Positions 855 to 63,305 of a stretch of DNA of 64,000 nucleotides are shown in pieces (position 1 is the stretch's first letter; each line of letters opens with the position of its first letter). This stretch comes from a virus (lineage: Duplodnaviria; Caudoviricetes). The stretch covers positions 4,412-68,411 of IMG/VR virus record IMGVR_UViG_3300011008_001623; one strand, given 5' to 3'. Under the pieces are notes generated by a model that made no database searches, was not told where the DNA came from, and saw only the letters and a list, made by a program, of their open reading frames with translations. The position numbers and the translations under genes were made by a program.

Positions 855-1162
855 TGTAAGCGGAAATGCTTAGGAAAGTGAAAGGTTACGCCCTTGCAGT
901 TTTCCCATACCATATTAAGTATTTCTAATTACATGCCTTTATTCGAATTGGAGCTATTTGAATAATTGGCAAGGCTATCTTCAACCTGCTTTAGGCAATC
1001 GAAGAGTCCTCGGCATGACATAACTGCCGTACGGTGAGATGAATCTTGCTCAATTCGATTTTACCAAACCATAATGGCATTTAATTACAGTTTCCTGTAT
1101 TTATGTTGAGAACACACTAGTCATTATGGAAAAAAGAGATATCTTTCGGGATATCTCTTTTT
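855..1162 (+). ncRNA. structured ncRNA-2, unknown family, paralog of ncRNA-1
   Basis: No ORF; stems GGAAATGCTT/AAGTATTTCT, TGCC/GGCA enclosing ATTCGAAT/ATTTGAAT, CGGCA/TGCCG, GGTGAGAT/ATTTTACC and CCATAATGGC/GTCATTATGG; ends in a terminator. Confidence 0.75.
1131..1162. terminator. bidirectional intrinsic terminator
   Basis: AAAAAGAGATATC-TTTCGG-GATATCTCTTTTT between ncRNA-2 and the convergent CDS. Confidence 0.85.
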
Positions 1163-1965
1163 TAATGCCTTAATCTAGCGACACGAGTATTTAGACATCG
1201 CGATTCATAATCATCACTAGATACATATACTTTTTTAACACCTAATTCGCTTTTTACAAGATTAGGAAGACTTTCAGACATTTTGCCACTTACAACATCA
1301 ATAAAAGCAAGATTACCTTTAATATGTCCAAAACAAAGACTTGAAATGTCTAATGTTTCTTCTATTAATTCAATAGAATCTTCTCTTTGTGACAAACTTT
1401 CTAATTCTTCCGCAAGAAATTCAAAATCTTCATCATCTTTTTGTGATTTAGCATAATCCGCTAAAGATTCAGTATGAGTCTGGCCATTCTTTCCTTTAAT
1501 AACAATGTCATTATTAATAACAATAAAGGGATAATCTCGATTATATGTATCTAAACGCAAAGTAAAAAATTGTGTTCCAATTGGTTCATTACTTTTTTCT
1601 AATTCTTCTAAAGGAACATCTTTATTATTGGCGATTAAATCCTGTAAATCTCCTAATTCAGGAGATACAAAATATTCTTTTTTATCAATGTCATTCAAGA
1701 TATAATCTTGAATTTTGTAGTATAAATCATAATCTATATATCCAGCAATTTCTTCTGCATTATTTTTGTATTCTTCATTGTTTTTATCAATTAATGGAAT
1801 ATAAGAATCAATTGCTTTTAACATATCATTTTTATTATTCTTTTTATTATTTTCTTCATATTTGCCTTTTTCAAAGTAATAGTCAATAAAATCTGGAATA
1901 CTGAATTCTTCAAAAGCTTGTTTGATTAATAATTCGATATTGTTGGCTTTTTTTAATCGCTTCAT
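1162..1965 (-). CDS. hypothetical acidic protein with MKRLKKA leader; C-terminal domain paralogous to a domain of 25549..27588
   Basis: 267 aa ORF; NRD..I..........TH...L, FGH....AFI and KVY...RVA.L motifs shared with the 679 aa protein. Confidence 0.85.
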   Translation of the reverse strand: MKRLKKANNIELLIKQAFEEFSIPDFIDYYFEKGKYEENNKKNNKNDMLKAIDSYIPLIDKNNEEYKNNAEEIAGYIDYDLYYKIQDYILNDIDKKEYFVSPELGDLQDLIANNKDVPLEELEKSNEPIGTQFFTLRLDTYNRDYPFIVINNDIVIKGKNGQTHTESLADYAKSQKDDEDFEFLAEELESLSQREDSIELIEETLDISSLCFGHIKGNLAFIDVVSGKMSESLPNLVKSELGVKKVYVSSDDYESRCLNTRVARLRH

Positions 1966-2234
1966 AATCCTAATTTTTCTCCATTTTCTTCCATAATATC
2001 TTTTAATTCGAATTGATAGAAATTTTCAAATTCAGCATCCAAATCACGAGAATATTCTTCACACATAAATTCAGGATTATCTTCCCAATCTTCTAAAAGG
2101 CATCCAGTTTCATCAATAACTTCACCTTCATAAAGTAATTCAATCATATTTGTATCATAATTATAACGAAAATCATTTCCATTTACATGATATACTTTAC
2201 TAATTTTATCAGCTTTTTTTACTAATCTTTTCAT
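1962..2234 (-). CDS. small acidic protein with MKRLVKKA leader
   Basis: 90 aa ORF, GAAGGTGA RBS, ATGA overlap with the next gene. Confidence 0.85.
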   Translation of the reverse strand: MKRLVKKADKISKVYHVNGNDFRYNYDTNMIELLYEGEVIDETGCLLEDWEDNPEFMCEEYSRDLDAEFENFYQFELKDIMEENGEKLGL

Positions 2235-2348
2235 TTTATCACCTTCTAATTTTAAAATAATTGCATTATGTATTTTATAAAATAAGAGTTTTACTTTTTA
2301 GAGAAATTATGATAAAATAATTAAGTTTGCAAAAAGGAGGGAAAAAAG

Positions 2349-2567
2349 TTGCAACCAATTGCACCCATAAATAATGCATATACGCAGTATCAGTATATGC
2401 AACAAAATCAATATCAGCAAAATCATAAACAAAAACAAGATGTTGATACTAATGAAGATAATGATACATTCGAGCATAGTAGTTATTCACCTTATTCAAT
2501 GTATGATAGTAAAGGAAATCTTTACAATAACTGCATTGCACGAAGAATAGTTAATATGAATTGTTAA
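2349..2567 (+). CDS. small Gln/Asn-rich hypothetical protein
   Basis: TTG start with AGGAGG RBS; promoter TTTACT-N17-TAAAAT at 2290-2318. Confidence 0.6.
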   Translation: MQPIAPINNAYTQYQYMQQNQYQQNHKQKQDVDTNEDNDTFEHSSYSPYSMYDSKGNLYNNCIARRIVNMNC

Positions 2568-2638
2568 TTTTGAGGAAAAAATTAAAAATTTTGTTATTGA
2601 CTATTTACAATTAAAAGATTTTGTGGTATACTATTATT

Positions 2639-2770: not shown

Positions 2771-2805
2771 GATTTATGCAAGCATTGATATGTGTAACCA
2801 TGGAT

Positions 2806-3156: not shown

Positions 3157-3186
3157 CTCTTTTTTATTTTAGAAAAATGTGTTAGT

Positions 3187-4166: not shown

Positions 4167-4176
4167 GGGGATTGTA

Positions 4177-4860
4177 ATGGAAAGACAAATTGTTTTTAAA
4201 GCATTGACTGGCCCAAGAAATTATAACTTAAATATTGAATTAGACGAAAATTATAAAACTTTTGTAATGCCAACATTTAATGACTTATATGAAAGCATTA
4301 TATATATTGGGCAAAAAAGTTATGATATTAGAAAATTACCTAATTTTATTCAGCAATCAAATTTAAATTTTTTGGAAATGCTTTTTAGTAAAGATATCGC
4401 CGGCGACAATGAATTAATTGATTACTTAAAATGGCATAGATTTGAATTATCAAAAACTAATTTACATGATTTATACTATTTATGCATTAATAATTCAGAT
4501 TACCTAAAATCAAAAATGATAAATCAATCAGTAAAAAAAGGTTATGATTCAAAAACAGCTTGTGAAGCAATTCGTTTATTAGACTTTATTATACGTTTAG
4601 CAAAATACGATTTTAATTTTGAAAAAGCTTTGTGGTATGGAAATTCTTCAGGAAATCAAATTCAAAGATGTTTTTTAATGAATGTCAAATTTGGGAAATA
4701 TAACATTGAAGAAATTTACGAATTTTTAAATGAATATAGAGAAAAAGCTGTTCAATATAAAAATCTATTTATTCATCAAAAAGTAAATTCAAATGAATTA
4801 AATCAATTAAATGAATTTATTAAAAATTACGTAAGGAAAGGAATACAAAATGAACTTTGA
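4177..4860 (+). CDS. RlaP/Pol-beta-like nucleotidyltransferase homolog, catalytic motif degenerate
   Basis: LTGPRNYNLNIELDENYKTFVMPTFNDLY resembles the GS-x-NYNL..SDxDxK signature but has GP and DxN. Confidence 0.6.
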   Translation: MERQIVFKALTGPRNYNLNIELDENYKTFVMPTFNDLYESIIYIGQKSYDIRKLPNFIQQSNLNFLEMLFSKDIAGDNELIDYLKWHRFELSKTNLHDLYYLCINNSDYLKSKMINQSVKKGYDSKTACEAIRLLDFIIRLAKYDFNFEKALWYGNSSGNQIQRCFLMNVKFGKYNIEEIYEFLNEYREKAVQYKNLFIHQKVNSNELNQLNEFIKNYVRKGIQNEL

Positions 4861-32086: not shown

Positions 32087-33325
32087 GTGAATACAACGTT
32101 GGAAAAAGTCAAAATGTCAAACGGTTTACTATTATGTTTAGATAAAACCGACAGCGATTTTGTTACAATTTCATATAATATTAATGCCGGTTCTTTTGAT
32201 GAACCGGAAGATATGCTTGGTGTAGCACATTTATCAGAACATTTAGTATTTAAAGGAACTTTACATCGAACTGCTGATGAAATTTTTTCAGATATTGAAA
32301 TATTAGGTGGAGAAATAAATGCATATACTACAGAAACCAATATTTGCTTTTATGTTACAATTTTAAAAGAATATTGGGAAAATGCATTAGATATTTTATT
32401 TGATATTGTATGGAATAATACTATTCCTGAAGAAGAATTTGAAAGAGAAAAAAGTGTAGTTATTGAAGAATTAAAAATGTATCATGATGATGGAAAACGT
32501 CGAATATTTGATTTATTAACAAAAACAGCTTATTATGATGTAATAAACAAATGGAATAATGGTGGAACTCCTGAAACTGTAACTGCTATTAATAGAGACC
32601 AAGTAGAATATTTTATTGATAATTTTTATGTACCTGAAAATATGCAAATCTTTGTTACAGGTGGAATAGATGAACAAAAAATAAAAGAGAGAATAAAATG
32701 GTATTTCAAAGATATAGAAATAAATTCTAATCATGATAATTTTAGAAATGATACAATTGAACCACAAGTAAAATCCTTAGCGGAAGAAATAGATTCTACT
32801 CAAAGTCATATGGTTATGTACTTAGCAATTGATAATGCAAAAACAACAAAAGAATATTTTATTCAAGAAATGGCTAAAGACATATTTGGAAATGGATTTG
32901 GTTCTCGATTAATGGAAATCAGAGAAAAATATGGATATGCATATACTATTTATTGTGACCATATTTTTGCCCAACCAAAATCATTACTATATGTTTATAT
33001 TGGACTAAATAAAGAAAATATTGCTAATACTCAAAAATTAATGATTAGTAAATTAAATGAAATTGCAAATGGTTCAATTACTGAAAAAGAATTCTTTACT
33101 GCAAAAAATGGATTATTAACTACAATTAAATCAAATAAAATTTCTACATCTGCAATGAATGATATGAGAATCAATTTCTTAAATGAACAATTGGATTTTG
33201 ATTGGGATATTCAAAAATTAATTGATGAAGTATATACAATTACAATTCGAGATATTGAAAATTATTATCATACATTAAATATCGAAAACGTTGGATTCAT
33301 CACCCTAAACCAAACGAAAGATTAA
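32087..33325 (+). CDS. M16 family (pitrilysin/MPP-like) metallopeptidase
   Basis: GVAHLSEHLVFKGT (HxxEH), NAYT, EKSVVIEE, SRL..IREKYGYAY. Confidence 0.92.
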   Translation: MNTTLEKVKMSNGLLLCLDKTDSDFVTISYNINAGSFDEPEDMLGVAHLSEHLVFKGTLHRTADEIFSDIEILGGEINAYTTETNICFYVTILKEYWENALDILFDIVWNNTIPEEEFEREKSVVIEELKMYHDDGKRRIFDLLTKTAYYDVINKWNNGGTPETVTAINRDQVEYFIDNFYVPENMQIFVTGGIDEQKIKERIKWYFKDIEINSNHDNFRNDTIEPQVKSLAEEIDSTQSHMVMYLAIDNAKTTKEYFIQEMAKDIFGNGFGSRLMEIREKYGYAYTIYCDHIFAQPKSLLYVYIGLNKENIANTQKLMISKLNEIANGSITEKEFFTAKNGLLTTIKSNKISTSAMNDMRINFLNEQLDFDWDIQKLIDEVYTITIRDIENYYHTLNIENVGFITLNQTKD

Positions 33326-33999: not shown

Positions 34000-34443
34000 T
34001 TAAAAATGTTCTTCAATAAATTCTTCTACTGCTTCATGAATATTATGGTTAGATTCTTTTGTTGCACCATTTTCAGCAATATAATCATGGACGCCATCCC
34101 ATGGAGATAATACTTCTTCAGAATATTTAAAGAATTCATTATCATCATCAGGATCCATACCTTTTTCTTCCATTTCTGCCATTAAAACATCTGATAATTT
34201 TCCGCCAAAAATATAATCAGAAAATACAGACTGAAGTCCAAGCTGAATTTCTTCATTAACCTCAGAAGATAATTCTTCTTCTAATACAGACGAGTCATGA
34301 GTTTTTTCATAAAGATCTACATATTTATCTTCATGAATATCCATAAAAGAAACTAAATCTTTTGTTAATTTTAAGTAATCACTTTTTGCTGCATCCATAT
34401 ATTTTGGAGATTTGCTGTCAGCTGTAATTAAACGTTTTTTCAT
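34000..34443 (-). CDS. acidic protein with MKKRLITA leader
   Basis: 147 aa, GGAGG RBS. Confidence 0.85.
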   Translation of the reverse strand: MKKRLITADSKSPKYMDAAKSDYLKLTKDLVSFMDIHEDKYVDLYEKTHDSSVLEEELSSEVNEEIQLGLQSVFSDYIFGGKLSDVLMAEMEEKGMDPDDDNEFFKYSEEVLSPWDGVHDYIAENGATKESNHNIHEAVEEFIEEHF

Positions 34444-35222: not shown

Positions 35223-36113
35223 ATGGATAAACAGCCGATAATTGAGGAAGATGTATACGATTATGTATATAACTTAAATTTACGCGATGATGGTGACGAA
35301 TTAAGTGACCCGTCAATGAATGACTTTTTAAAGGGGTATAAAATGAGACCTTATGATTTTGTACAATGGGCAAAAACTCATAATAAAATAGTTAAAAAAG
35401 CTGCTACCGAAGTAGTACCGATGCATTTTTATCCACAGTATTTAGCTGATTATATTTTAACTTTGTGGAATGGTGCTGATGGAACCCTTCAAGACTTTTT
35501 TAATGGTTTTACTTTAAGATATAATAACAAATTAAAACAAGCTATAGCAAAACATATTAATGAAATGGGATTTGAAGTATATCCAGTTTTAACTGATGAT
35601 AGAGCTTTTTTTGCTAAAAAAGTAAAAGATCAGTTTCTTAGAGTGGCTATGGCTGATTTAGATACAAAATTGTTATATGTTAAGAAAACATTTAAAGATT
35701 CCGAAGCATTAAGATTATTTCTTGGTGAATTAGATGATATAAAAGAAATGGGACATCCAGTAACAGCAGGAAAAGTAGTGGATTTATTAGATTATTATTC
35801 TAATATTTTCCCTGATGATTATGCTGTGCAATTAACAAAAAATCTTGTAGTAGATAAAGGGTTAAAAGATGTTGGTTTTGATTATTACAAAGATTTTGGC
35901 ATGACCAATGAATCATTAGAACAAGCTGAAAAAATTCTTTCTGAAAATGAAGACAGTTATTATGATATTCATAATGGCGTTCCCTATGGCTGGGATTATA
36001 TTTCTGATATGAGAGGATTCGATGGAGTGCGTCCTGAACAGTTTGAAATGGTTCAAAATACAAACAATACCGGAGCTCATTTATATAATATAGCTTCTAA
36101 AAAAAAAGACTAG
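35223..36113 (+). CDS. hypothetical protein; probably continues by a -1 shift into 36107..36490
   Basis: 296 aa ORF ending in an A9 run (KKKD*). Confidence 0.75.
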   Translation: MDKQPIIEEDVYDYVYNLNLRDDGDELSDPSMNDFLKGYKMRPYDFVQWAKTHNKIVKKAATEVVPMHFYPQYLADYILTLWNGADGTLQDFFNGFTLRYNNKLKQAIAKHINEMGFEVYPVLTDDRAFFAKKVKDQFLRVAMADLDTKLLYVKKTFKDSEALRLFLGELDDIKEMGHPVTAGKVVDLLDYYSNIFPDDYAVQLTKNLVVDKGLKDVGFDYYKDFGMTNESLEQAEKILSENEDSYYDIHNGVPYGWDYISDMRGFDGVRPEQFEMVQNTNNTGAHLYNIASKKKD

Positions 36114-36490
36114 CTGATTCAATTGGGAATATTCCTCTAAATTTAGTATTAGATGCAATTTCCTCAGGAGCTAAAAATATTTGTGGATTATTAAATCAAA
36201 CATTGGCGGTTCCTCCAACTCCAGTTCGTTCTTATCGAAAACAAAATAATAAAACTAAATCTAATATTCCTAATTTTTATACAACCATACAACCAAATGA
36301 TATTGTAGATGTATTTGAAATTTGGAAAGTTACATTAAATAATGATGATTTATCTGAAATGTTTATGGTAATATCTGCTAAATGTAATTTATTTGGATTT
36401 AGAAAATCAAAATGGAGTCAAGTAAAATATAGAGGATTTTATTCTTCTGTTGACGAAGCTAAAAATGAAATTTTCTCGCGACTTGCGTAA
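36101..36490 (+). CDS. start-less reading frame, probable C-terminal extension of 35223 ORF
   Basis: Frame open from 36101 (KKRLADSIGNIPL...) after an in-frame TAA at 36098; no RBS/start until TTG 36203. Confidence 0.55.
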   Translation, partial: KKRLADSIGNIPLNLVLDAISSGAKNICGLLNQTLAVPPTPVRSYRKQNNKTKSNIPNFYTTIQPNDIVDVFEIWKVTLNNDDLSEMFMVISAKCNLFGFRKSKWSQVKYRGFYSSVDEAKNEIFSRLA

Positions 36491-39500: not shown

Positions 39501-40288
39501 GAAAAGTCAATAAAATTTTAACATTAAGTGATTGGAAAAATTTAATTTCAAAACCAATTTCAGATCATATTATTGTTGCAGAAATTTTAAATGCTTCTAT
39601 TTCTAAAAATGAAGCAGACGCAGAATTAAAGTTGTTTAATAATGATTTAGGAATACATAGTATCATCACTGCTAAATCTAAGATTGACAACGATAAATTT
39701 TCAGATATAAAGTATTTTGTAAATGGTAAAGAAGTATTGCCACAAGATACTTTTATAATAAATAGGTTAGCTAAAAAAGCATCAGAATTTCAAACCTCTT
39801 CTGATAATGCCATTATTTTTTCAAAACATGACCTTCAAAACAAACTTGCATTTTTAACTGATATTAATCAAATTAATACAGTTATTCAAAATTGGGAACA
39901 ATCTAATTTGATTTCTGATTTAGGAAATAATAAATATGCAAGTACACATACTATTACAGAATTAATTTCTTCTTCTAATTTAAAAGCTTATAGTGATGAA
40001 AAAATTTCTGATAATTATAAGCATGCAAATAAATCTAATGTAATGATTCCTAAATCTTATCACACTAATAATTTTGAAGCAAAAATGCTTTCTAGTGTAA
40101 AAGATGGAAAAACGTTAGATGAATTAAATGCTTTAAAAGAAAAAACTATAGCTTTAGCAAAACAATATGTAGATGAAAAAATTCTAACAGCTAATCGTTT
40201 TGACCAGATAAAATTAATGATTGAACAATCAAATGATGTTTCACAATTAAATCTTGCTTATAAGAAAATTGAAAGGTATAAATCATGA
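36512..40288 (+). CDS. 1258 aa protein with six ~185 aa modules
   Basis: (K/E/T)Y(A/V)S...(D/E)L(L/I) motifs at about 37151, 37691, 38228, 38786, 39356 and 39932. Confidence 0.85.
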   Translation: MYKFTQIDNSVLTNTPEVKIPDWINDINFKKPVESQLSISPDYSIINQRHVIANRSDNTAYTREMKLSFNDEMLCTYAKAKLSLMLKNKKFIIEAQRVNNKNVELDIVFEKNPAKYTFHYHDENGKIQPEKTFTASCNNVVNEYPFSTAGLEDSFEDVQNGFSKQSNLVLEPNGYTVMSRYEIVKRFNNSIQKASEAINQNLKEGNIVGVGSNEYASIYNLDLLFPDLRKPFEGEQAHTTDFVENTVSTDINEKKTAQRLSLEASINNRDFTVEKIIKSKRNDTHLVVTAKISNNGITHTPTFNYKIENEKPIPYAVKLNNKIYKYNDFIKQIKQASRHISEKTSETSNQNHSYIGTYRNLYAKLENIVSKSVAKKLVNYWLDQNMIQSHDSEKYASNMSLNDLLDKTEDVSYLTDSEVSELIRSKSKFGSNMKFYQMLIKDNDTRTNLLADRLASKNESIKKLVSQYDKHPVITDNYVTFNYNGKQVIGKYQDNDIICLIKNKQIPLKDLKSDSKLLQAFLNDNKESQGRKIIITTAMFHNKLKDYIKEQEINTVIAYLEDKNKLQKIDEHTYVSENDFDELIKDINISPDESIKQANLEKANRLRKAFELYHLEDNDTRNIELLDKHSEVLASINHYLGQYFDNYKIQYLTSKDINIKFNQKSFYTSLDYQDGKIVSASCKIGKHLIPISQVHEAFKQNELLKQYLSDHKANDCYNIIITAKSIHNQLGDYLSEDNINQTISNLIKQNYLVEIGVDKYASQFTFDELLNKVDIIPDKFLKAERLKKANRLHEAFEFYHLEDNDTRNIELLDNRHEVLASINRYLNQYFDNYKIQYLTDDTINVKFNKKSFYTKLEYKDDKIVSASCKIKNRMIPITHVHNAFKQNALLRQYLADNYSADHKENDYSIIITAKSIHEKLHDYLDECDINELIQELVKKHMLIEIGTDKYASNNSFDDLIRDIDKINPDLKSEHLKLANRLEQYQSQKITVQDSDNRKVNKILTLSDWKNLISKPISDHIIVAEILNASISKNEADAELKLFNNDLGIHSIITAKSKIDNDKFSDIKYFVNGKEVLPQDTFIINRLAKKASEFQTSSDNAIIFSKHDLQNKLAFLTDINQINTVIQNWEQSNLISDLGNNKYASTHTITELISSSNLKAYSDEKISDNYKHANKSNVMIPKSYHTNNFEAKMLSSVKDGKTLDELNALKEKTIALAKQYVDEKILTANRFDQIKLMIEQSNDVSQLNLAYKKIERYKS
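38320..39260 (+). repeat. 558-bp-period intragenic duplication
   Basis: CATTTAGAAGATAATGATACTAGAAATATAGA at 38351 and 38909. Confidence 0.85.
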
Positions 40289-40536
40289 AACGATTAAAAA
40301 AATGGTCGAAAATAGATTTAGAAGAATTAGAACAACAATACCAACGTCTACAAAAATCTGAAGACCCTGAAGATGAATTATATCAGCTAGAAGATGTTGT
40401 CAATGATGATAAAAAAACATTTTTTATCCAACCGGGGAATTTACTGGTCGAATATGATGATAATCTATATGATACTCAAATGAGACCAGGAATTCCTGGT
40501 TATTGGCAAGCAAGTGAAAGGTGGATATACCAATGA
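40285..40536 (+). CDS. small acidic protein with MKRLKK leader
   Basis: 83 aa, ATGA overlap. Confidence 0.8.
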   Translation: MKRLKKWSKIDLEELEQQYQRLQKSEDPEDELYQLEDVVNDDKKTFFIQPGNLLVEYDDNLYDTQMRPGIPGYWQASERWIYQ

Positions 40537-40883
40537 AACGTTTAGGGTCAAAACCAGTAAAAATCATAAATAGCTTTTTAAGTAAAGACGGAGCATATTA
40601 TGAATATTCTGTAAGATTATTAGGAAGAAGATTAATGTATTCTATTACATGTTTAAATGGATACGAATCATATTCTATTTATGATGGAGAAGATTTTGAA
40701 GACAGTTTTGAAATATTTAGTGAATTAGCAATGATTTTAAGAGGCTTATCATTTGCTGAACGATTTATCAAAACAAAAAATGATATTCAAAATAATATTG
40801 ATGAATTATATGATAAACAGCAAAATATGATGCTAAAAGTAAAACCATTATTCTTAGGAGACAGTGATTTCCCGACTGTATAG
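40533..40883 (+). CDS. small protein with MKRLG leader
   Basis: ATG 40533 (ATGA overlap) behind GAAAGGTGG. Confidence 0.75.
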   Translation: MKRLGSKPVKIINSFLSKDGAYYEYSVRLLGRRLMYSITCLNGYESYSIYDGEDFEDSFEIFSELAMILRGLSFAERFIKTKNDIQNNIDELYDKQQNMMLKVKPLFLGDSDFPTV

Positions 40884-40892: not shown

Positions 40893-41099
40893 ATGAAAAG
40901 ATTAAAAAAAGCAAGACCTATTACACATCGTCAAGTCCCCATTCAAGTTGGATTAGATTTTCCGACTTATGAGGAAATGATGCTGAATGATGGTGAAATA
41001 GAACCACAATTCAAAGAACCATTAAAATACTTTATAGAAAAAGATTGCGATAATCTAGAATGGCGATTACAACAAAGCTTCGATTCGCCTATGATTTAA
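40893..41099 (+). CDS. small acidic protein with MKRLKKA leader
   Basis: ATG 40893 behind AGGTGA. Confidence 0.75.
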   Translation: MKRLKKARPITHRQVPIQVGLDFPTYEEMMLNDGEIEPQFKEPLKYFIEKDCDNLEWRLQQSFDSPMI

Positions 41100-41112: not shown

Positions 41113-42666
41113 TTGATTAGTTCTACAAGTAAACTGCCAAGCTGGTTAGAAAATTTTGCTTCTTTAATGAATAGCAAAAAAATGAAAGTAGCGGAGAATA
41201 ATGTTCAAAACTTGCCAACTTTTAATTGGAAAGATGAAACGTTTTATGTTCAATTAAATGATGATGGTGCAGACCTTTATAATAAATTTGCCACTGTAGT
41301 ACTTCATATTGATGATGCAAAGAGTGTTGAAGATGTTAGTAAATATTTTAATGATAATGCAATTACTGCAAGTACTAAATTTGAAGATGAAATTCCTGAT
41401 GATACACAGACTGAACAGCCACCAGTAGCCGAACCCCAAGTAGGTGAACCACAGGTGGGTGATGTAGTGACTGGTGAAGACGAAACCGGTGAAGAAGTGT
41501 TAGCTTCTGAAGAAGAATCTGATGATTTGCCATTTGAATTAAGTGAAGAAGATTTTGAACAAGTATCAGATGATGAAGCAGAGAAAATTCTTTCTGAAGA
41601 ACCAGAAGAAGTTCCTGAAGAATCAGATGAAGCTTCTGAAGAAATTCCAGCAGATATCGCTGAAGAATTATCTGAAATTGTAAATGATGAACCTCCAACA
41701 GAATCTGTAGAAGAAACTATTACTCCAGAACTTACTACAAATGAAGAAGTAGTAGTAGAAATGCCCGCAACTGCTATTGGTGGAGAAACTTTTGAGGGTG
41801 CTGGAGAACCAGTTCAGACTAATGAAATAATTGAGCATACTGAAGAAGTAAAAGAAGAAGTTGCTGAAGAAGGAGAAACATTAGTAGAGGAATTACATAA
41901 TATTCTTTCTACAGGCGAAGCTCCAGCCACTGAAGAACTTCAGTCTGAAGATAATGCAGTTCCAGAAAAGAATTTTGAAGAAATGCATGAAGCTTTAATT
42001 GAACGTATTGATACATTAGAAAATACAATTAATGAATTAAATGATACAATTGCAAGTTTAAAGAAAGATACTAAAATTGCTAAAAATAGATATAATCGAT
42101 TAAATAAAAAATATGCAGAACTTTATCGTGCATATCAAATTATTGATAACAATATGTATGATTTAAATAGCCAAGAAGAAGAAATGAAGCATGTAAATGA
42201 AAATGCCGAACTGACTCAGAAGGTTATTGATAAAGAACATGAATTAGATTTATCTAAAATGTCTGATAGAGGAAAATTAAATGCGGATTTTCTAAATGAT
42301 ATTTTAACTGAGGTTCAAGTTAGTCTTAATGATATTTCAGATGGCGTAGAACAAGCTATTGATACCGTGGTTGATGATAATATTGAACAACCAGACGAAG
42401 TTGTTCAGGACGTCCCTCAGGAAGTAGAAGTAATGGTCGAAGAGCCTATGGCTGAAGAACCCGTTGAAGAAAATCCTGAATTTGAAATTGTTTTATTAGA
42501 TGACCCACAACAGTTAAAAGAATTTGAAGACCAGTCTTGCCCATTCTGTCATGAACATGACTTAAAAGCTGGTAGTTCAAAAGAAAATGTAACGGAAGTA
42601 AAGTGCGCTTCTTGTAAGAAAATGTTTGCAGTTACTGGCGATAAGAAAGTCTTTTACAAGAAATAA
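41113..42666 (+). CDS. highly acidic coiled-coil protein with C-terminal Zn ribbon (scaffold/core-like)
   Basis: Glu-rich low complexity, coiled coil, CPFC...CASC. Confidence 0.7.
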   Translation: MISSTSKLPSWLENFASLMNSKKMKVAENNVQNLPTFNWKDETFYVQLNDDGADLYNKFATVVLHIDDAKSVEDVSKYFNDNAITASTKFEDEIPDDTQTEQPPVAEPQVGEPQVGDVVTGEDETGEEVLASEEESDDLPFELSEEDFEQVSDDEAEKILSEEPEEVPEESDEASEEIPADIAEELSEIVNDEPPTESVEETITPELTTNEEVVVEMPATAIGGETFEGAGEPVQTNEIIEHTEEVKEEVAEEGETLVEELHNILSTGEAPATEELQSEDNAVPEKNFEEMHEALIERIDTLENTINELNDTIASLKKDTKIAKNRYNRLNKKYAELYRAYQIIDNNMYDLNSQEEEMKHVNENAELTQKVIDKEHELDLSKMSDRGKLNADFLNDILTEVQVSLNDISDGVEQAIDTVVDDNIEQPDEVVQDVPQEVEVMVEEPMAEEPVEENPEFEIVLLDDPQQLKEFEDQSCPFCHEHDLKAGSSKENVTEVKCASCKKMFAVTGDKKVFYKK

Positions 42667-43499: not shown

Positions 43500-43852
43500 G
43501 ATTAATAGATAAAATTAATAGAGAACGAAAAATTTTTGAACATTCATTAGCTAATTTTACTTTGAATGAATCAAACAAAATAAGATGTAGTAAATGTAAT
43601 AAGGTTATTTCTTTTTCTCGTGGTTTTTATTCAAAAGGTGCTTATTTTTCAACTTCATTAAATCATAAAAACTACTGTGGACAATGTCATTACGAATTAA
43701 TATGTATTCAAGATACTAGTGATTATCATATTCTTTATCGAGAAAATAATCTTGAAGTATGCATTTCGGGAGAACCAACGGGCACTTTATTTAATTTATT
43801 TCAAAAAAGATATTTAAAAAATAAGTTTTATGATTTTTTTATAGGGATATGA
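43496..43852 (+). CDS. Zn-finger hypothetical protein
   Basis: CSKC...CGQC. Confidence 0.7.
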   Translation: MRLIDKINRERKIFEHSLANFTLNESNKIRCSKCNKVISFSRGFYSKGAYFSTSLNHKNYCGQCHYELICIQDTSDYHILYRENNLEVCISGEPTGTLFNLFQKRYLKNKFYDFFIGI

Positions 43853-44858
43853 TTTCATTTGTATCTAAATCAATTTTAATTAAATTAGAATTTGTTTTAA
43901 GACATTGCTGAAAATAATCTTGTATATCATGTAATTTATCTGTTTTTGAAATAAAGACAATTACTTTCCAACCTAATTGATTTAATTGCTTATAACGATT
44001 TTCATCTTTTTGTTGAAATTCTAATTTTGTTATGGTATGAAAAACGTTTACAGATAAATCATGGCCACTCCCATTGTATTCAACCGCTACTTTTTCTAAT
44101 GGAAAAGCAATATCAATAACAAAATCTAATAACGGATAATTAAAGATTCCTCCGATTAAGGAGTGAATCTTTTTTTGTTGTTTAGAAGAAAAAACATGAT
44201 TATTGGGATTTGCTAATAATGTTTGTAATTGTTTTCGTTTTATTTCTTGACATTGTAAAGGATTTACATTTCCGTATAAAGAAATCATGATATTAGCAAT
44301 TTTTTCTTTTACAAAGTCAACTTTTAAAATGTTATTTACTCCATAACGTTCTAAACATGTTTGCTGAATTAATTTTTTTACATAATCTGACGCGATACTG
44401 TATTCATTATCATATCTTTCTAAACAAGTTAATTTGGTTTTTTCTTTTATTTTTTCACATTGCATTGGCCACTCCGTTCCATAACGTTCTAAATTTGTTT
44501 CTATCATTTTTTGTTTTGTTGATTCTAATTGAGATGCATATTTCATACCATAACGTTCTAAATTTGTTTGTTGTTGTTTTGCAATCATTTTTTGTATAAA
44601 TTCTGGAGTGTAATGTGATTTAAATAAACATTTTTTACATAAACATTCTTTTAAATCATTTCCAGTTCGAGAAAATGGCTTATTACATTCGTCACATATA
44701 CATTCAATTTTTACCATAGTATGAGGAAGTTTTTCTAGTAATTCTAATTGATTTACATTTACATATGTTACTCGTCCTTCTTTATATGTATTAGAAAATA
44801 ACTCTCTATCAGATTTTTTCTTTAATGGAACTTTTATGATTTTTGATAAAATTGGCAT
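43839..44858 (-). CDS. free-standing homing-endonuclease-like protein (LERYG repeats plus Vsr/PD-(D/E)xK-like domain)
   Basis: Zn finger CDEC/CKKC, five T(N/C)LERYG-type repeats, IDIAF...VEYNGSGH. Confidence 0.7.
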   Translation of the reverse strand: MPILSKIIKVPLKKKSDRELFSNTYKEGRVTYVNVNQLELLEKLPHTMVKIECICDECNKPFSRTGNDLKECLCKKCLFKSHYTPEFIQKMIAKQQQTNLERYGMKYASQLESTKQKMIETNLERYGTEWPMQCEKIKEKTKLTCLERYDNEYSIASDYVKKLIQQTCLERYGVNNILKVDFVKEKIANIMISLYGNVNPLQCQEIKRKQLQTLLANPNNHVFSSKQQKKIHSLIGGIFNYPLLDFVIDIAFPLEKVAVEYNGSGHDLSVNVFHTITKLEFQQKDENRYKQLNQLGWKVIVFISKTDKLHDIQDYFQQCLKTNSNLIKIDLDTNEIISL

Positions 44859-53088: not shown

Positions 53089-53412
53089 ATGAAAGGAATT
53101 TTTAATCATGAAAATAACAATTTTATTTGGTACCATTCTACGCTTCGAGGATTAGCTTCTAAGATATTAAAAGAAGGATTGGTAATTAATTCCATTCCTA
53201 CTTTTCAAGAATCACCCGAACCAAGAATCTATGTCTCTACGCATCCATTTACGTCAGATAAAGATTTTATTACGTTTCAAGTGGATTTAAGTAATTTTGA
53301 CGAGCAATATGCTAAATGGCCATTTAATGAAATTAATAAGCCAATTAATCATCGTTGGCAGTTGTGTATTTATAAAAATATTCCTGCTAAATTACTTTCC
53401 CCATTTTCTTAA
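53089..53412 (+). CDS. small ADP-ribosyltransferase-fold-like protein
   Basis: WYHST...ILKEGL, IYVS, IPAKLL; ATG 53089 after AAGGAG. Confidence 0.55.
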   Translation: MKGIFNHENNNFIWYHSTLRGLASKILKEGLVINSIPTFQESPEPRIYVSTHPFTSDKDFITFQVDLSNFDEQYAKWPFNEINKPINHRWQLCIYKNIPAKLLSPFS

Positions 53413-53889
53413 ACGTTTGAATTTAACACTGGCTGTTTTTGCTTCTTCCAGTTTTTCATCAATCAATTCTAATGCAGATGACATATGATTTTCAGTATAC
53501 TCTATAATTAAAGTACCTAAAACATTTTCTTTAATATCATCTACATCACTTTTGCGATCAAATTGGTCAAAATACTGCTGAACTTTTTTATCGCTTCTAG
53601 TGCACATAGTCATTAAATCAGATTTCTGAAAAAATGCTGAAGCTTTGAATTTGATGTCCATAATGATTTCATCACGGCTTTTATTTTTATAATCTGGAGT
53701 AACTTCAAAATAATCTTCAGCTATTTTCCACATTACTTCTTCTTCATTATTGCATTCCATCATTGCAATAATATACTTGTTTAATTTTTCATACAAATAT
53801 TCAAATTGTTGCGAATAAGCTTCTTTAAATAATTTTGCTTTTTTAATTAAATTAGCTAAATATCTTTTTTTTATACAATATTGAGTCAT
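53392..53889 (-). CDS. hypothetical protein with basic motifs at both termini
   Basis: N-terminal KKRYLANLIKKA, C-terminal TASVKFKRLRKWGK. Confidence 0.8.
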   Translation of the reverse strand: MTQYCIKKRYLANLIKKAKLFKEAYSQQFEYLYEKLNKYIIAMMECNNEEEVMWKIAEDYFEVTPDYKNKSRDEIIMDIKFKASAFFQKSDLMTMCTRSDKKVQQYFDQFDRKSDVDDIKENVLGTLIIEYTENHMSSALELIDEKLEEAKTASVKFKRLRKWGK

Positions 53890-53979: not shown

Positions 53980-54336
53980 ATGGCTACAACAAATATTCTA
54001 ACTTCTGTTCCTGAAGATGTTCTAAATGCTGCAAAAATTGCATTAAATAAAGATGTTACGACTGCTAATGACGTTGGTAATGGTGTTATGTTTGGCGGTA
54101 ATCATAGTTATGAAGATGATGACTGGGTAAAGATTGTATATGATGCTGAAGGTAATATCTCTAAAATCACTAAACCACATCCATTCTCAGATACTAGTGA
54201 AGAAGATATCACAAATACAGTATTAGACCAGATTAAAAAAGACAAAAAAGAGAATCAATCAGAAGAAACTGACGAAACTGAAAATCAGCAACAGACAGCT
54301 TCAGTAAAGAAAAAGAGACTGATAAAGAGGAGTTAA
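53980..54336 (+). CDS. acidic protein with C-terminal KKKRLIKRS
   Basis: 118 aa, GAGG RBS. Confidence 0.8.
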   Translation: MATTNILTSVPEDVLNAAKIALNKDVTTANDVGNGVMFGGNHSYEDDDWVKIVYDAEGNISKITKPHPFSDTSEEDITNTVLDQIKKDKKENQSEETDETENQQQTASVKKKRLIKRS

Positions 54337-54352: not shown

Positions 54353-55384
54353 TTAATTATAACACTTAAATCTATTATTTTCTTCTAAATAAATACGTAC
54401 AACATTATAAGTATTTAATAAATTTTTAGCTTGATTAAATAATTCTAAAATTGTTTCATCGTCAGGAAAATTATCATTGGGTGCAATAAATCGAATTGTT
54501 TTGATTCCTTTATCTAATAAAAACTTTTCTCTAATACGTTCATTTTCATCAAATTGTTCTCTTGACATTTTTTTATAAGCAACTACGCTTAACCAATGTC
54601 CCGCACCATCGATTTCAACGTCTATTCCTTCAACTTCCAAATAAATATCCAAAACATATTTAGAAATATGTTTTTGTAATTTACCATGAAAAATGGATTC
54701 GTTTAATCTTCGTTCTGTTTTTGAAGACATTTTGTTTTCTTTCCGATTTTTCATACGGGTTTTATCTTGTTTTTTTCTAATTTCTGGAACTTGACATGTG
54801 TAATCATAACCATATTTTTCTCTATTTGTTTTAATCATTTTTTCTTTTGCTTCAGGTAATTGAGAATTAATTCTTACACCACGTTTTTCAAATAAATCAT
54901 TCTGTAATTTTTTACGAAATTCTTTATTTGAAAGAATATGGTTGCAACCATATTTTTTTAAACATGTTTCTTCTGATTTTTTTTTAACTTGTTCACTTTG
55001 CGATGCTACTTCGCAACCATATCTTTCTAAACAAGTTTGTCTTCTTTTTTGTTCAATTTCTGGACGTTGAAACGAACTTTCCACTCCATATCTTTCTAAA
55101 TTTGTTCGTTTTCCTAAACAAGGAGCACAATATGTTTTTCCATTCTCAAAAAATTTTAAGTTATTTACGCTTTTGTAGTATTCTTTTTGACATTTTTCAT
55201 TGTCGCATTTAAAATGCCAAGCAACTTTTTTATTATGAGGGGATATTTCCATTAATTCAAAAATATTTATAAAAATTTGATTTTCCGTTTCTGGTTTATT
55301 TAATTTTCTAAATTTTTCAATTACACTAGGGAGTAATTTATTTTTATCAACCCACATATTTTCTTCTAAAATCATTGTTTTCAC
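54353..55384 (-). CDS. free-standing homing-endonuclease-like protein, paralog of 43839..44858
   Basis: CDNEKC/CAPC, five LERYG-type repeats, YVLDIYL...VEIDGAGHW. Confidence 0.7.
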   Translation of the reverse strand: MKTMILEENMWVDKNKLLPSVIEKFRKLNKPETENQIFINIFELMEISPHNKKVAWHFKCDNEKCQKEYYKSVNNLKFFENGKTYCAPCLGKRTNLERYGVESSFQRPEIEQKRRQTCLERYGCEVASQSEQVKKKSEETCLKKYGCNHILSNKEFRKKLQNDLFEKRGVRINSQLPEAKEKMIKTNREKYGYDYTCQVPEIRKKQDKTRMKNRKENKMSSKTERRLNESIFHGKLQKHISKYVLDIYLEVEGIDVEIDGAGHWLSVVAYKKMSREQFDENERIREKFLLDKGIKTIRFIAPNDNFPDDETILELFNQAKNLLNTYNVVRIYLEENNRFKCYN

Positions 55385-55476: not shown

Positions 55477-55696
55477 GTGAAACGAAATCATGGTACAAAA
55501 ACTGGTTCTAAATTATTTAGAAATTCTACTATAGTGGAACCAAATTCTACTGTGAAGCAAAAAATGCAAAAAAATAATAGGAGAACGAAGACAGCAACAT
55601 TTGATTTGAGATTAGGGACCCCTTCATGGTACCAACCCTTGTTTTCGTCCGTCAACATGTTGTTGCCGAGAGATCGTAGAGAACGAAACGAATGGG
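55477..55696 (+). CDS. portal protein exon 1 (boundary 55696 or 55697)
   Basis: GTG start after GAGGTGA; LLPRDRRERNEW continues as RHFYRTEP in exon 2. Confidence 0.8.
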
Positions 55697-56128
55697 TGGT
55701 ACCGTGCCCCTTGTATTAAGTAATTAGTACAAGCTATGGTATTAAATGCTTTGAATCCCTAAAGTCACACGACCGAAACAGTAATTTGAAAAAATAAGCT
55801 GAGGATTAATCCTAGGTGCGAAAGCAGAAAAAATAGTGTGAATGACATACGGTTAAATCCTAAGTGTTATTTATCATTTTATAAAATGATATGTAATGGG
55901 TCTTTAGCAGGGAAAGTCCTAAGTCTATTTTTAGATATGGAAAACCTTCAACGACTATCTCCTTGAGGGAGAGTAAAACTGCAATGCTAGCATTAAAATG
56001 CTTATGGCAGAAGAAAAATACCACTCCTAATTTTATTAGGATGAAGATATAGTCTATACTTATATGAAAATATAAGAAACGTTAAATCGTTTATTATAGT
56101 GTTGCGAACTATAATTAATATTAATTAG
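55697..56128 (+). mobile_element. ORF-less group I intron 1 of portal (432 nt; register uncertain by 1 nt)
   Basis: TTCAACGACTA 55947-55957, GATATAGTCTA 56046-56056, GGTTAAATCCTAAGT 55851-55865, P2 CTTGTA/TACAAG. Confidence 0.85.
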
Positions 56129-59305: not shown

Positions 59306-59620
59306 ATGAAAAGACTTAAAAAAACAGCAGCCCCTATCGGCTCGCCTTATATTCATCACGTAGTTAATGATTTAATCACTACCCATACTAATTTAAATAA
59401 AAATTTATCAGATATAGAATTCTTAATAGCAAAACAATTACTTGCAGATATGCCTATAATCCCTACTTCAGAGAGATTATATGATTTAACTGACCAATTA
59501 AAATTAGGATTATTTGATGATATTTGCACAATGGAAGATGTATATGACCATTGGCCTGAATGCTTGGACAGAGTAAGAGAATATCTGAAAAGCATTAATA
59601 TTCTCCTGGAGGTGAAGTAA
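59306..59620 (+). CDS. small protein with MKRLKKTA leader
   Basis: ATG 59306; RBS weak. Confidence 0.7.
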   Translation: MKRLKKTAAPIGSPYIHHVVNDLITTHTNLNKNLSDIEFLIAKQLLADMPIIPTSERLYDLTDQLKLGLFDDICTMEDVYDHWPECLDRVREYLKSINILLEVK

Positions 59621-59621: not shown

Positions 59622-60506
59622 ATGATACGTTATGTCCCTGGAGAAATTAATGACCAATATCAAAAATTACTAACTCAATATCATAAATATAATGCAAAAT
59701 TATTAGAAGAATCTAAGACTTTAATCAAAACAGCAGGGAAAAAAATTGTTAAAATTTGTCCGACAGAAAGTGATTTCCAGTATTATCGAGCAAGAGCAGT
59801 ATCCGCAGGAAATGTTATAGAACATAAGGACGGAACATGTGAATTAGTACCATTTGAAACTTATAAAAACAATCTAGCTAAATATAGTAAATTATGTAGA
59901 AATGCAAATGATAATGGTGACTTTTTTTCACATGAAGAACTATTGGCTAATTACAAATCTTTTATTGGAAAAAGTATATTTGTTGACCATAATAATGAAA
60001 ATGTAGAAGATGCTCGAGGAATTATTTTAGATGCTATTTATAATCCAGACAGATATTTTGTAGAAATATTATTTGCTATAGATAAAAAAGCTTTTCCTCA
60101 GTTAAATAATGCTTTAACAAATAGAATGATAACAGACGTTTCAATGGGTTGTAGAGTTGATGGAAGTGTTTGTTCTATTTGTGGAAATAATGCGGTCACA
60201 GAAGATGACTTATGCGAGCATGTGATTAACTACAAAGGAATGACAATTCCAGTAAATGGTGAAATGTTACCAGTTATGGAATATAACGTACACCCCCAAT
60301 TTTTTGAAACTAGCTGCTGCGTACAAGGAGCAGATTCTGGTGCAAAAATCATGCAAAAAGTCGCTTCAAAATCTTCTATTTCGGAAATCAAAGAAGTTAC
60401 ATTAAAAGAAAAAACCAATATAATAAAACAAGAGAAAAATCAACGGTTTGCTTCCGGAAGAATTGCTTCTATGGAAGATAAATTAAAAGATTTACCTTGG
60501 AGTTAA
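59622..60506 (+). CDS. prohead (capsid maturation) serine protease
   Basis: NDNGDFF, FVDH (catalytic His candidate), DVSMGC (catalytic Ser candidate), CSICG/CEH, FFETS..GAD. Confidence 0.8.
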   Translation: MIRYVPGEINDQYQKLLTQYHKYNAKLLEESKTLIKTAGKKIVKICPTESDFQYYRARAVSAGNVIEHKDGTCELVPFETYKNNLAKYSKLCRNANDNGDFFSHEELLANYKSFIGKSIFVDHNNENVEDARGIILDAIYNPDRYFVEILFAIDKKAFPQLNNALTNRMITDVSMGCRVDGSVCSICGNNAVTEDDLCEHVINYKGMTIPVNGEMLPVMEYNVHPQFFETSCCVQGADSGAKIMQKVASKSSISEIKEVTLKEKTNIIKQEKNQRFASGRIASMEDKLKDLPWS

Positions 60507-60558
60507 AATAATAAGCAGCTAAATTAGCTGCTTTGTTTTTATAGAAAGGAGATATAAA

Positions 60559-62442
60559 TTGTTTATTTATAAGATAACAAATTTGCTTACACAAGAGGTT
60601 TATATTGGCCAAACTATTAATATGGAACATCGTATGAGAGGACATTATGCAAGTGATAATTTTCGTGATTATGTAACAAAATATGGACGAACAATTTTAG
60701 ACGTAAAAATTTTAAAAGAAGTTCCTGATGAACAAGCTAATAAAGTTGAGTGCATTGAAACATTAAAATGTAGATTAAATGGAGAAAAAGTCTTAAATTC
60801 TGGTTACGGAACATATTCATCAAAAGCTATTAATAAATGCTTACAACGTTATCCAGATTTAAATGCAGAACAATTATATGAAAAATTATGTGAAAAACAT
60901 CCAAAAATGAGAACAATTGATATGTCTCAGCCATATTACGTATTTAAAATTTTTAATGATGATGGTGAAATTTATTTTGGAAAAAATGCAGAAAATAAAA
61001 AAGATAAAATTAACATAAAAAAGACATTAGAATTGTTTAAGAATAAAAATGTAGAAATTAAAATCATTAAAAAATGTACATATGAAGAAGCATTTGAATT
61101 ATGTTTTACATTATGCGTAAAAGCATATCTAAATAATGAAAAACTTGTCAACATTTATTTTGGAAAAACTCGTGGAGATGTTATTAAAAACATTCATAAA
61201 TATTCTCCTCATCTTGATTATGAAGGAATTTTACGCGAATTATCATTTTCAAAAGAAGGAATATATCGTATTTGTGAATTACATAATACAAATAATGATA
61301 AATACTATATTTGTTCAACTACCGATTTATTATATAACAATATTTTAGGTAGATGGAGGTCCACTCATCCAGTAAAGCAAGATTTAGAAAAATATCATTA
61401 TAATGGATTTGAAATTAAAGAATTATGTATTTGTAAAGACCGAAAGGATGCAATAAAACAATCCGAACTTATTACGGAACAATATATAAAAAATGAATAT
61501 GATTTATACAATATCCGCAAAGGCGGAAAAATGATAAAACAAAAAACTTATATCATATCTAGATTAGAAAATACAAATACGAATGAAGTAATTTATCATT
61601 ATACAAATGATAAAAAATTTGCTAGTATTGAAAAAGAATTTACACATTATCCAGAATTTATAAATGAATACAAATTAAATGGAATGCAAAATTTAAAATT
61701 AGATATATATAAAAATCAAACTCTTAATGATTATTCAAAAATGATTATTCATAGTGTTTTACATGAAAACAATAAAAATGATATTGATGTTTTACGTTTA
61801 GAAATCATTAAACATTTATGCGATAAACCTGTGAATGAAATTGTACCGTTTATTCGAGAAGATTTAAGTGATAAACAATTAAAACAAAATGCAAAACAAA
61901 TTTGTGGCAATACTAGATATCGCTTTATTCATGTATTTATTAATGAACAAACAAAACAAGTACAAATCAGTGTAAATGCAGATAGATTGCAAAATGTTAT
62001 TCAAAGTTGTTTATTTTGTGATAAATCGCTATTAATTGCAAAAACTATTAATTACGGTGAATTTGAAAAAATGAATATTGAAGCTTGTAGAGAAGCTATT
62101 AAATTAATGTGGCAAGGTTATGAACTTCAAACTGAAAACATTGGACGCGTTAAAATGTCTTGGTTTAGAAAATTTAAAGCTAATTTAGGACATGAATCAT
62201 TAGAACGAGCATTAGAAATTTACAATATGTATTTAACTCAAGAAAAATTACTTTTTTGGTTTCAATATCATGATGACATTCATATTTCATATAGTAAAAA
62301 AACAATGTTTGGATATGTTTATAAGAATTTTTTAAATCCTGAAAAAATCCAGTTACATTTTCTTGGTTATTTAAAAGATTTTAATTTAGATGATATTATT
62401 TCTAGTTTTAATCAAAATGTTATTTGTCATATAAAACAATAG
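60559..62442 (+). CDS. GIY-YIG endonuclease with additional degenerate GIY-YIG-like modules
   Basis: FIYKITN...YIGQT..R..H at the N-terminus; similar strand-strand-helix patterns recur about four more times. Confidence 0.7.
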   Translation: MFIYKITNLLTQEVYIGQTINMEHRMRGHYASDNFRDYVTKYGRTILDVKILKEVPDEQANKVECIETLKCRLNGEKVLNSGYGTYSSKAINKCLQRYPDLNAEQLYEKLCEKHPKMRTIDMSQPYYVFKIFNDDGEIYFGKNAENKKDKINIKKTLELFKNKNVEIKIIKKCTYEEAFELCFTLCVKAYLNNEKLVNIYFGKTRGDVIKNIHKYSPHLDYEGILRELSFSKEGIYRICELHNTNNDKYYICSTTDLLYNNILGRWRSTHPVKQDLEKYHYNGFEIKELCICKDRKDAIKQSELITEQYIKNEYDLYNIRKGGKMIKQKTYIISRLENTNTNEVIYHYTNDKKFASIEKEFTHYPEFINEYKLNGMQNLKLDIYKNQTLNDYSKMIIHSVLHENNKNDIDVLRLEIIKHLCDKPVNEIVPFIREDLSDKQLKQNAKQICGNTRYRFIHVFINEQTKQVQISVNADRLQNVIQSCLFCDKSLLIAKTINYGEFEKMNIEACREAIKLMWQGYELQTENIGRVKMSWFRKFKANLGHESLERALEIYNMYLTQEKLLFWFQYHDDIHISYSKKTMFGYVYKNFLNPEKIQLHFLGYLKDFNLDDIISSFNQNVICHIKQ

Positions 62443-62483
62443 TATTTTATTTATAGAAAATTAAAAAGTGAGGTAATTAAAAT

Positions 62484-62840
62484 ATGAATACAATTAAAAA
62501 ACGTTTAATAAAGAAAGCAGAAGATGTATATGAAAATGCTAAAAAAGGCATTAAAGAATTTAAAGAATTAGCGCAGTCATTGAATTGGGATTCTTATGAA
62601 GAAGATGGCATAGTATGCGTTTATTATAAAAAGTTTGATGAAACTGAAGTTACTATTAATGGTGAAACAAACACATATCAGAATGTAAGTTTTTATGCCG
62701 GTGTTAATTATGAAGATGTTAATAACGCTAGTTATGAAGCTGGCGCAGAAATCGATGGAAAAACTTACTGGAAAGAATTTAATGACGCTAAAACCATGAT
62801 TGACGCTATGAAAAATCCATCAAAAGTAGATTTGCAATAA
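62484..62840 (+). CDS. protein with KKRLIKKA leader
   Basis: 118 aa, GAGGT RBS. Confidence 0.8.
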   Translation: MNTIKKRLIKKAEDVYENAKKGIKEFKELAQSLNWDSYEEDGIVCVYYKKFDETEVTINGETNTYQNVSFYAGVNYEDVNNASYEAGAEIDGKTYWKEFNDAKTMIDAMKNPSKVDLQ

Positions 62841-62849
62841 GGTGATTTC

Positions 62850-63305
62850 ATGAGAAAAAAGCGCCTAATCAAAAGAGCTTCACCAGTAGACCAAAGCCTA
62901 ACAGCTATTAGTAATGATGGACGAAAAATTCTTCAGATGTTAGAAAATATGAAGTTTAAAATTGAGCAGTCTGCTCGTATTCTAGGCAATGATCCAGATT
63001 CTTCTAAAAAAATCATGCAAAATAGTAGTATGATAGACCAGATTGAAAGTATGTTATATGGCATATGTTTTAATTTGGAAAATATGGATTTGATTCCTTC
63101 TTACAATGAAAATCAAGTACAATTAAATGAAGGCGGAAAACCTGATTCAGAAATGAATATAACTGAAGAGGAACCTGAGAAAGAAAACGAAGAACAGGAA
63201 GAATCCGAGGAACCAGAAGAACAAGAATCTGAAGAACCAGAAGAAAATGAAGAAGAATCTGAAGAAGAAACCGAGGAACCTAAGGAAGAAGCTGAAGAAG
63301 AATGA
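62850..63305 (+). CDS. protein with KKRLIKRA leader and Glu-rich tail
   Basis: 151 aa, AGGTGA RBS. Confidence 0.8.
   Translation: MRKKRLIKRASPVDQSLTAISNDGRKILQMLENMKFKIEQSARILGNDPDSSKKIMQNSSMIDQIESMLYGICFNLENMDLIPSYNENQVQLNEGGKPDSEMNITEEEPEKENEEQEESEEPEEQESEEPEENEEESEEETEEPKEEAEEE

Follow-up and report, generated by a model that had tools for sequence, protein, structure and literature searches.

A short basic terminal peptide on unrelated proteins of phage-G-like giant phages looks like a sorting tag linked to the head module

Analysis of a 64-kb window of viral DNA (the whole stretch under study, positions 4,412 to 68,411 of IMG/VR virus record IMGVR_UViG_3300011008_001623) revealed a short basic peptide with a K/R-R-L core at the N- or C-terminus of eleven of its predicted proteins. 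This peptide recurs on many more proteins in related genomes and is very probably a common functional tag. It looks like a sorting tag that has not been previously described: the tag strings were found in no paper of the library searched, and the phage G papers covered make no mention of the tag. The window belongs to a 68.4-kb contig with a GC content of 27-30%, which is a fragment of a phage-G-like giant phage. Its portal-to-protease region is 68.7% identical in nucleotide sequence to that of Bacillus phage G, the largest cultivated phage. Orthologues of most head and baseplate genes of the window are present in phage G, as well as in a complete 504-kb IMG/VR contig (G001) and a 156-kb contig (G002). 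A more distant contig with 22% GC (G003) was also included in the comparison, and contigs from sheep and bovine gut metagenomes (three studies) match part of the window.

Genes were called with a scorer based on codon usage and ribosome-binding sites, which yielded 86 genes in the window contig and reproduced the GenBank start codons of the phage G genes that were checked (gp12, gp13, gp17, gp334, gp336, gp345-347 and gp351). A gene was counted as tagged when [KR]RL started within the first 9 residues of its product or, for C-terminal copies, within the last 12, and expected counts were derived from the interior rate. By this measure, 9 of the 86 genes carry an N-terminal tag (0.17 expected) and two carry a C-terminal tag (0.22 expected), with only 4 interior copies in the window genes. 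The nine N-terminal and two C-terminal peptides listed in the original prediction, which was made from the letters of the window, all translate as it had given them. In 300 shuffles permuting either the residues within each N-terminus or the alignment columns among genes, two null models that include the tags' own composition, the observed counts were never reached in the window, phage G or G001. The excess over all composition-preserving shuffles hence goes beyond what K-rich N-termini in an AT-rich genome would produce; a frequency no higher than that is what the original prediction had named as its own undoing.

An alignment of 34 seeds anchored on R-L defined the consensus M-K-R-L-[I/K/V]-K-K-[A/S]-[N/S/D], with Met immediately preceding the K/R-R-L core in 27 of the 34. 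The second half of the tag is also enriched on its own account, with the pattern L[IVLMK]K[KT]A about 15-fold overrepresented within 15 residues of the N-terminus. The tag is found at N- as well as C-termini and can be set back by up to 8 residues from the initial Met, and it therefore behaves as a docking motif and not as a start-codon effect. An internal boundary that had been proposed for RLVKRVA at about 26420 found no support, this being a single interior copy. Some of the regular-expression matches were judged not to be tags and were excluded from the evidence, for example an 812-aa DNA polymerase III fragment of G001 and MIKRLSILAK, which resembles a signal peptide.

The enrichment extends to the relatives of the window contig. 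N-terminal [KR]RL was observed 25 times in phage G against 2.0 expected (671 genes called), 39 times in G001 against 1.6 (709 genes called) and 6 times in G002 against 0.7 (200 genes called). Tagged genes thus make up roughly 1 in 10 genes in the window fragment and 5-8% in phage G and its gut and soil relatives, so that the earlier figure of at least eleven bearers, all eleven of which are real, was too small. C-terminal copies are enriched in the window, where the two genes read as had been stated, but they are not enriched in phage G (3 versus 2.6 expected) or G001 (4 versus 2.1). An Arg-to-His variant occurs beside MKRL in G001, where a further 14 genes begin with MKHL[IK]K[KQ]A (e.g. 303573-304123), and a slightly wider pattern places the tag on 54 of its 709 genes. 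Tagged genes also adjoin each other more often than predicted by permutation. In the AT-rich Bacillus jumbo phage AR9, used as a control, no excess was detected (2.8 matches per 100 kb versus 3.6 in the reversed control), while the same measure gave 13.2 versus 1.5 for the window contig. In G003, the tag has drifted in concert to N-terminal M-N-R-I/L-L-x-R/K-I-A and C-terminal ..Q/K-R-L/M/I-A-K/R.. forms, which are found on head-module proteins, including the portal. Such concerted, lineage-specific drift is expected of many ligands of one co-evolving receptor.

Several lines of evidence locate the signal in the peptide. The Lys, Arg and Leu codons within the tag are used at genome-wide proportions, which upholds the earlier reading of varying codons as a mark of protein-level selection. 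Nucleotide information upstream of the ATG of tagged genes equals that of other MK-starting genes; no conservation beyond the ribosome-binding site was detected there, and the signal is confined to the first eight codons. A search for a promoter common to the tagged genes returned only a weak enrichment of GTATTAA at inconsistent positions, and this candidate was dropped. The bodies of the tagged proteins are, as had been claimed, unrelated and mostly acidic. Once the tags are cut off, the eleven window bodies are not similar to one another (best pairwise E 0.017), and the two neighbours with C-terminal tags are alike in the tail only. Pfam and PHROGs searches with all eleven tag-bearing window proteins returned no match. 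Across four genomes, the median isoelectric point (pI) of tagged bodies is 4.6 versus 5.8 (P = 3e-17), and 84% of them have a pI below 6, versus 54%. The data hence support a terminal signal selected at the protein level on otherwise unrelated proteins.

The distribution of the tag supports a link to the head module. In all the relatives, tagged genes flank both the portal and the head protease. The gene directly preceding the protease (phage G gp17 family) is tagged in each of them, and the genes on both sides of the protease are tagged in the window, phage G, G001/L027, G002/L028 and L029. The head operons hold 6 of the 9 N-terminally tagged window genes, whose stops and starts overlap or abut those of their neighbours. 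Tail, baseplate, terminase, decoration and capsid genes are tag-free. Phage G also carries the tag on gp334, a nucleoside-deoxyribosyltransferase-like protein (a NUDIX hydrolase according to its GenBank note), on the SLOG protein gp345 and on the ferritin-like gp346, as well as on one GNAT protein, one ParB-N protein and five "HGTS" paralogues, one of which presents a PARP match below the Pfam cut-off (E 2.5e-4).

Within the window, a compact group of tagged genes follows the 1258-aa gp7-like gene on the plus strand. The first (40285..40536, 83 aa, MKRLKKW) overlaps with its start the stop of the gp7-like gene and keeps the tag in its G001 orthologue; it is followed by a member of the phage G gp9-like family (40533..40883, 116 aa, MKRLGSKP) and by a 68-aa gene (40893..41099, MKRLKKA), and this trio of small genes is conserved. 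Three more plus-strand genes lie around the protease gene. The gp17-family gene (59306..59620, 104 aa, MKRLKKTAA) ends 1 nt before it. The alignment of this family has a mean column identity of 38%, against an invariant M-K-R-L, and a word-based homologue search starting from the gp17-like protein returned just two close relatives. Downstream, the gene at 62484..62840 (118 aa) starts with MNTIKKRLIKKA, where the tag lies 5 residues in from Met, and its G001 homologue begins with MKYLIKKA. The adjoining member of the phage G gp20 family (62850..63305, 151 aa, MRKKRLIKRAS) ends in a poly-Glu tail, has a pI of 4.2 and possesses tagged homologues in phage G and G002. Given the small size and helical look of this family, its acidic tail and its position after the protease, we labelled it scaffold-like, and it is a putative scaffold in what follows.

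The other three N-terminally tagged genes are on the minus strand. A 147-aa gene (34000..34443, MKKRLITA-DS) lies in the head module between a sigma factor gene and a gp4-like gene, and a 90-aa gene (1962..2234, MKRLVKKA) overlaps by 4 nt the start of the downstream gene at 1162..1965, which is also on the minus strand and encodes a 267-aa protein that starts with MKRLKKA and ends with ..TRVARLRH. The family of this last protein comprises 27 clusters in 1.84 billion proteins; its C-terminal domain is conserved (RDYPF, FGHV.N.AF.D) and nearly all its members end in ..[KT]R[LVI]A[KR].. The AlphaFold2 (AF2) model of the protein is confident (predicted local distance difference test, pLDDT, 88), and Foldseek and VIA-wide searches with it returned no clear fold (best E 0.1, Z 5.2), with GNAT-like hints only. 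The two C-terminally tagged genes are found at 53392..53889 (minus strand, 165 aa, ending in ..KTASVKFKRLRKWGK) and 53980..54336 (plus strand, 118 aa, ending in ..QTASVKKKRLIKRS).

A tag-like junction was also found at 36107, where the original prediction had read KKRLA as an internal boundary. The string is present, but in no ordinary open reading frame (ORF), and it is read only through a -1 shift as a frameshift junction. The shift, at an A9 run (36099-36107), joins a 296-aa ORF (35223-36113) to an ORF of about 130 codons ending at 36490, and the resulting plus-strand product (35223..36490) reads ..SKKK-RLADS.. across the junction. Phage G (gp5/gp6), G001 and G002 all have the A9-A10 run in the same frame layout. 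In the window it is the sole run of at least nine A, and independent gut contigs show no indel in it. The sequence thus points to a likely programmed -1 frameshift or transcriptional slippage at this run. Downstream of it, an N-terminal P-x-W-L/I/M-x-D/E/N-F/I motif, some 10-25 residues from the start, is common to the gp7-like (1258 aa) and gp11-like (517 aa) proteins (regions 36512-36640 and 41113-41180) and to their homologues. The head region also contains homing-endonuclease-like genes at 43839-44858, 54353-55375 and 60559-62442, two of them with DUF7487 and DUF559 domains and one GIY-YIG/HNH-like by PHROG; one such gene separates the protease and scaffold-like genes, which are adjacent in relatives.

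The candidate enzyme for clipping the tag is the putative head maturation protease encoded on the plus strand at 59622..60506, whose earlier assignment is backed by a match to PHROG 18299 (E 7e-17) and, less firmly, by structural comparison. Its AF2 model comprises a core of residues 47-233 (pLDDT 70-84) between two disordered flanks, with T4 gp21 as the best fold match (Z 8.1 over 128 residues, root-mean-square deviation 4.0) and herpesvirus assemblins at Z 6-7.3. Unrelated beta-barrels (MCE) also score about 7, and identification as a head protease of the gp21/assemblin kind is hence at best moderately supported by the model; a sequence profile search against the PDB with the protease returned no match. 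Residues H123, S174 and H200 are invariant in six homologues. The protease (60483-60506) and the product of the gp21-like gene at 63302-63856 (63836-63856) end in a shared motif, ..KLKD(L/I)(P)WS, with variants ..KLKDLPWS, ..KLKDIWS, ..DWTxG and ..GFGWSG among the protease and gp21-like proteins of the window, L027-L030 and phage G (gp19, gp21). The C-terminal end of the HK97 protease is a known capsid-docking signal and, by analogy, this shared motif may constitute a second one.

The K/R-x-A sites that had been pointed out around the protease domain are conserved in part. K36-T37-A38 (59727-59735) is invariant in the six homologues within a length-variable N-terminal linker of the form phi-[IV]-K-T-A, which resembles the second half of the tag, L-[IV]-K-[KT]-A. 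A248 (60363-60365, K-V-A|S), just past the core, is likewise invariant, but the RFA-S and RIA-S sites are not conserved. The RTKTA string noted in the portal, which lies in the first exon of its gene (55477..55719, plus strand, ..NNRRTKTA-TF..), does fall within a conserved basic-x-A stretch of the portal N-terminal region (R-x-K/T-T/M-A). It aligns with MKRTAA-S in G001 and QRKMA(N/S) in G002 and phage G, ahead of a conserved G-x-P-S-F/W-Y. In the tags themselves, a small residue lies on the body side at both ends (..KKA|body and body..TA|SVKKKRL..), so positioned that cutting behind it would release the basic peptide from either end. The major capsid protein of the relatives (281 aa) lacks a delta domain, and the protease must therefore act on separate proteins.

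A second candidate processing enzyme is the M16 metallopeptidase encoded on the plus strand at 32114..33325 (Pfam M16 E 2e-31, M16_C E 7e-27). Its gene lies directly after terL in the window, phage G, G001 and G002, with an intact HxxEH motif and a downstream EEL. Such a peptidase, which appears from its sequence to be active, is unusual equipment for a phage head module.

We regard head loading as the most likely single role of the tag, although the proposal is a tentative one. Read from sequence, a helix would have M1, L4, I5 and A8 on one side, with K2, R3, K6 and K7 opposite. The tag could thus form a two-turn basic amphipathic helix serving as a common docking peptide, which would recruit its bearers (head-assembly accessory proteins, the scaffold-like protein, numerous small acidic proteins and several phage G enzymes) into the assembling prohead. 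The acidic partner for docking would be either the scaffold-like protein, through its poly-Glu tail, or the capsid protein, through its inner face or N-arm. Next, the gp21/assemblin-type head protease would cut at the terminal small residue, ..K-K/T-A|x at N-termini and ..T-A|S-V-K-K-K-R-L.. at C-termini, although such cutting after Ala or Ser is somewhat less likely than head loading itself. A more elaborate version, in which the helix would address 30-55 proteins per genome to the capsid, including injected host-takeover enzymes, an assemblin-like Ala|Ser-type protease would remove it and M16 would clear the released peptides, appears unlikely.

A number of observations weigh against head loading. 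Many of the tagged genes are distant from the head genes, and some are found among replication genes. The tag can be missing from orthologues, as it is from the gp12 family of the window and from the scaffold homologue of G001, which indicates that it is modular. In the AF2 model of the 267-aa protein encoded at 1162..1965, the tag forms part of a longer helix and does not stand free, and RVARL, at the C-terminus, makes up one of the strands. Tagged gp346 has been reported in the phage G particle proteome, but the same data contain many replication proteins (PMC12484599) and its presence is consequently weak, unspecific evidence. Finally, the docking partner, the encapsidation and the cleavage of tagged proteins are inferred.

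The same features can be accommodated by other explanations. The tag might be a general, uncleaved docking helix for a partner other than the capsid, most likely the anionic cell membrane and otherwise an assembly or replication platform. MinD, FtsA, SepF and Noc all use terminal membrane-targeting helices, and T4-type proheads begin on the membrane. The perfect i, i+3, i+4, i+7 hydrophobic face set against a Lys/Arg face would suit such a helix, as would function at either terminus, the scatter of tagged genes over the genome and the pairing of the tag with acidic soluble bodies. Yet eight residues with M, L, I and A make a short and weakly hydrophobic anchor, lipid binding would not demand concerted drift within lineages, and neither the conserved terminal small residue nor its likeness to the protease K-T-A is explained, so that we consider this option rather improbable. 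A slightly smaller likelihood attaches to a leader on which the phage M16 metallopeptidase would act, comparable to mitochondrial presequences or to the leaders of ribosomally synthesised and post-translationally modified peptides, and whose removal or degradation would activate or time proteins whether capsid-bound or not. M16 enzymes act on short basic amphipathic peptides, and the peptidase gene accompanies terL with its HxxEH intact in all four genomes; the tag, however, falls well short of presequences in length, its Arg, 5 residues ahead of the Ala, is off the R-2/R-3 rule, its C-terminal copies do not suit a leader, and M16 might just as well serve to clear peptides that the head protease has released.

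A role as a degron or adaptor-binding tag for an AAA+ protease (e.g. ClpXP) or a chaperone, setting protein lifetimes, is more improbable still. The motif is terminal and found at either end, and it resembles basic ClpX tags such as the RRKKAI C-terminus of MuA and the LRVVK of the SspB XB motif. ClpP (PF00574) is encoded by phage G only; it was not found in the complete G001, which has 54 tagged genes, although host ClpXP could take its place. Tags on structural head-module proteins would also be odd in this role for a scaffold and for portal neighbours. The least probable explanation by far is that the peptides share no function and arise as a by-product of K-rich N-termini, translation-favouring 5' coding sequence, paralogy or a mobile start cassette. 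AAA-rich second codons are indeed common and MK starts frequent in these genomes, but this explanation is largely refuted by counts that exceed every shuffle, by the absence of the tag from AR9, by genome-like synonymous variation without upstream conservation on unrelated bodies, and by the existence of C-terminal and set-back copies.

Among characterised systems, the closest parallels to a head-loading tag share its logic and diverge in sequence. In T4, the prohead protease gp21 removes the capsid-targeting sequence (CTS) from the internal proteins IPI-III and from Alt (Mullaney & Black 1996, cited in PMC10052503). Like the CTS, the phage tag is a short N-terminal peptide on unrelated proteins, with enzymes among its bearers and a candidate gp21-type protease encoded alongside, and it ends in what resembles the protease's own site. 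The CTS, however, reads MKTYQEFIAE, in contrast to the basic KRLIKKA, and the gp21 motif is L/I-x-Glu, whereas the tag ends in K-K/T-Ala/Ser without Glu. The CTS is also restricted to a handful of bearers, while the tag, known here from sequence, is found on 5-8% of all genes and at C-termini too. Encapsulin cargo-loading and microcompartment encapsulation peptides are likewise short, occur at either end and dock unrelated cargo inside a protein shell, which in encapsulins has the HK97 fold; the ferritin-like bearer gp346 of phage G is a further likeness. These peptides differ in consensus (GSL-type in encapsulins) and in remaining uncleaved, and the shell in the present case would be a phage capsid, filled with DNA and accompanied by portal and terminase.

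Herpesvirus assemblin cleaves Ala|Ser bonds, and the C-terminal tail of the herpesvirus scaffold binds the capsid. The similarity of the protease model to assemblins and the conserved KVA|S after the phage protease core are reminiscent of this system, and in both cases the cut in a terminal peptide that binds the capsid would fall at a small residue followed by Ser; however, the herpesvirus tail is present on the scaffold only, and the fold match with the phage protease is weak. Mitochondrial presequences are also basic amphipathic N-terminal leaders, and the head module encodes a conserved M16 enzyme that looks active, but presequences span 15-50 residues with Arg at -2/-3 of the cut, in contrast to the 8 residues, the Arg 5 before Ala and the C-terminal copies of the phage tag. 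The candidate tags MNWYKxAQ, of phage-G-like fragments, and MNRYDIALGKKPPP would be alike in placing one short tag on dozens of unrelated huge-phage proteins, and differ in sequence; no MNWYK-type tag was found in the genomes studied here. Since the features that define each class (Glu site, GSL consensus, length and Arg position) fail, the tag falls outside all of these known classes, although it may work in a similar way.

As a head-loading signal, if it is one, the tag would identify which proteins are packaged and, presumably, injected across an entire clade of uncultivated megaphages. It would also imply a head protease specificity unlike that of the Glu-specific T4 and phiKZ enzymes, and a very short peptide sufficing to load foreign proteins into a T=52 capsid. 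Were the fuller import-and-processing system to hold, the injected proteome of phage-G-like megaphages would become readable from sequence alone. Should the tag instead prove to be a membrane tag or a degron, it would still represent a proteome-wide sorting code in a virus.

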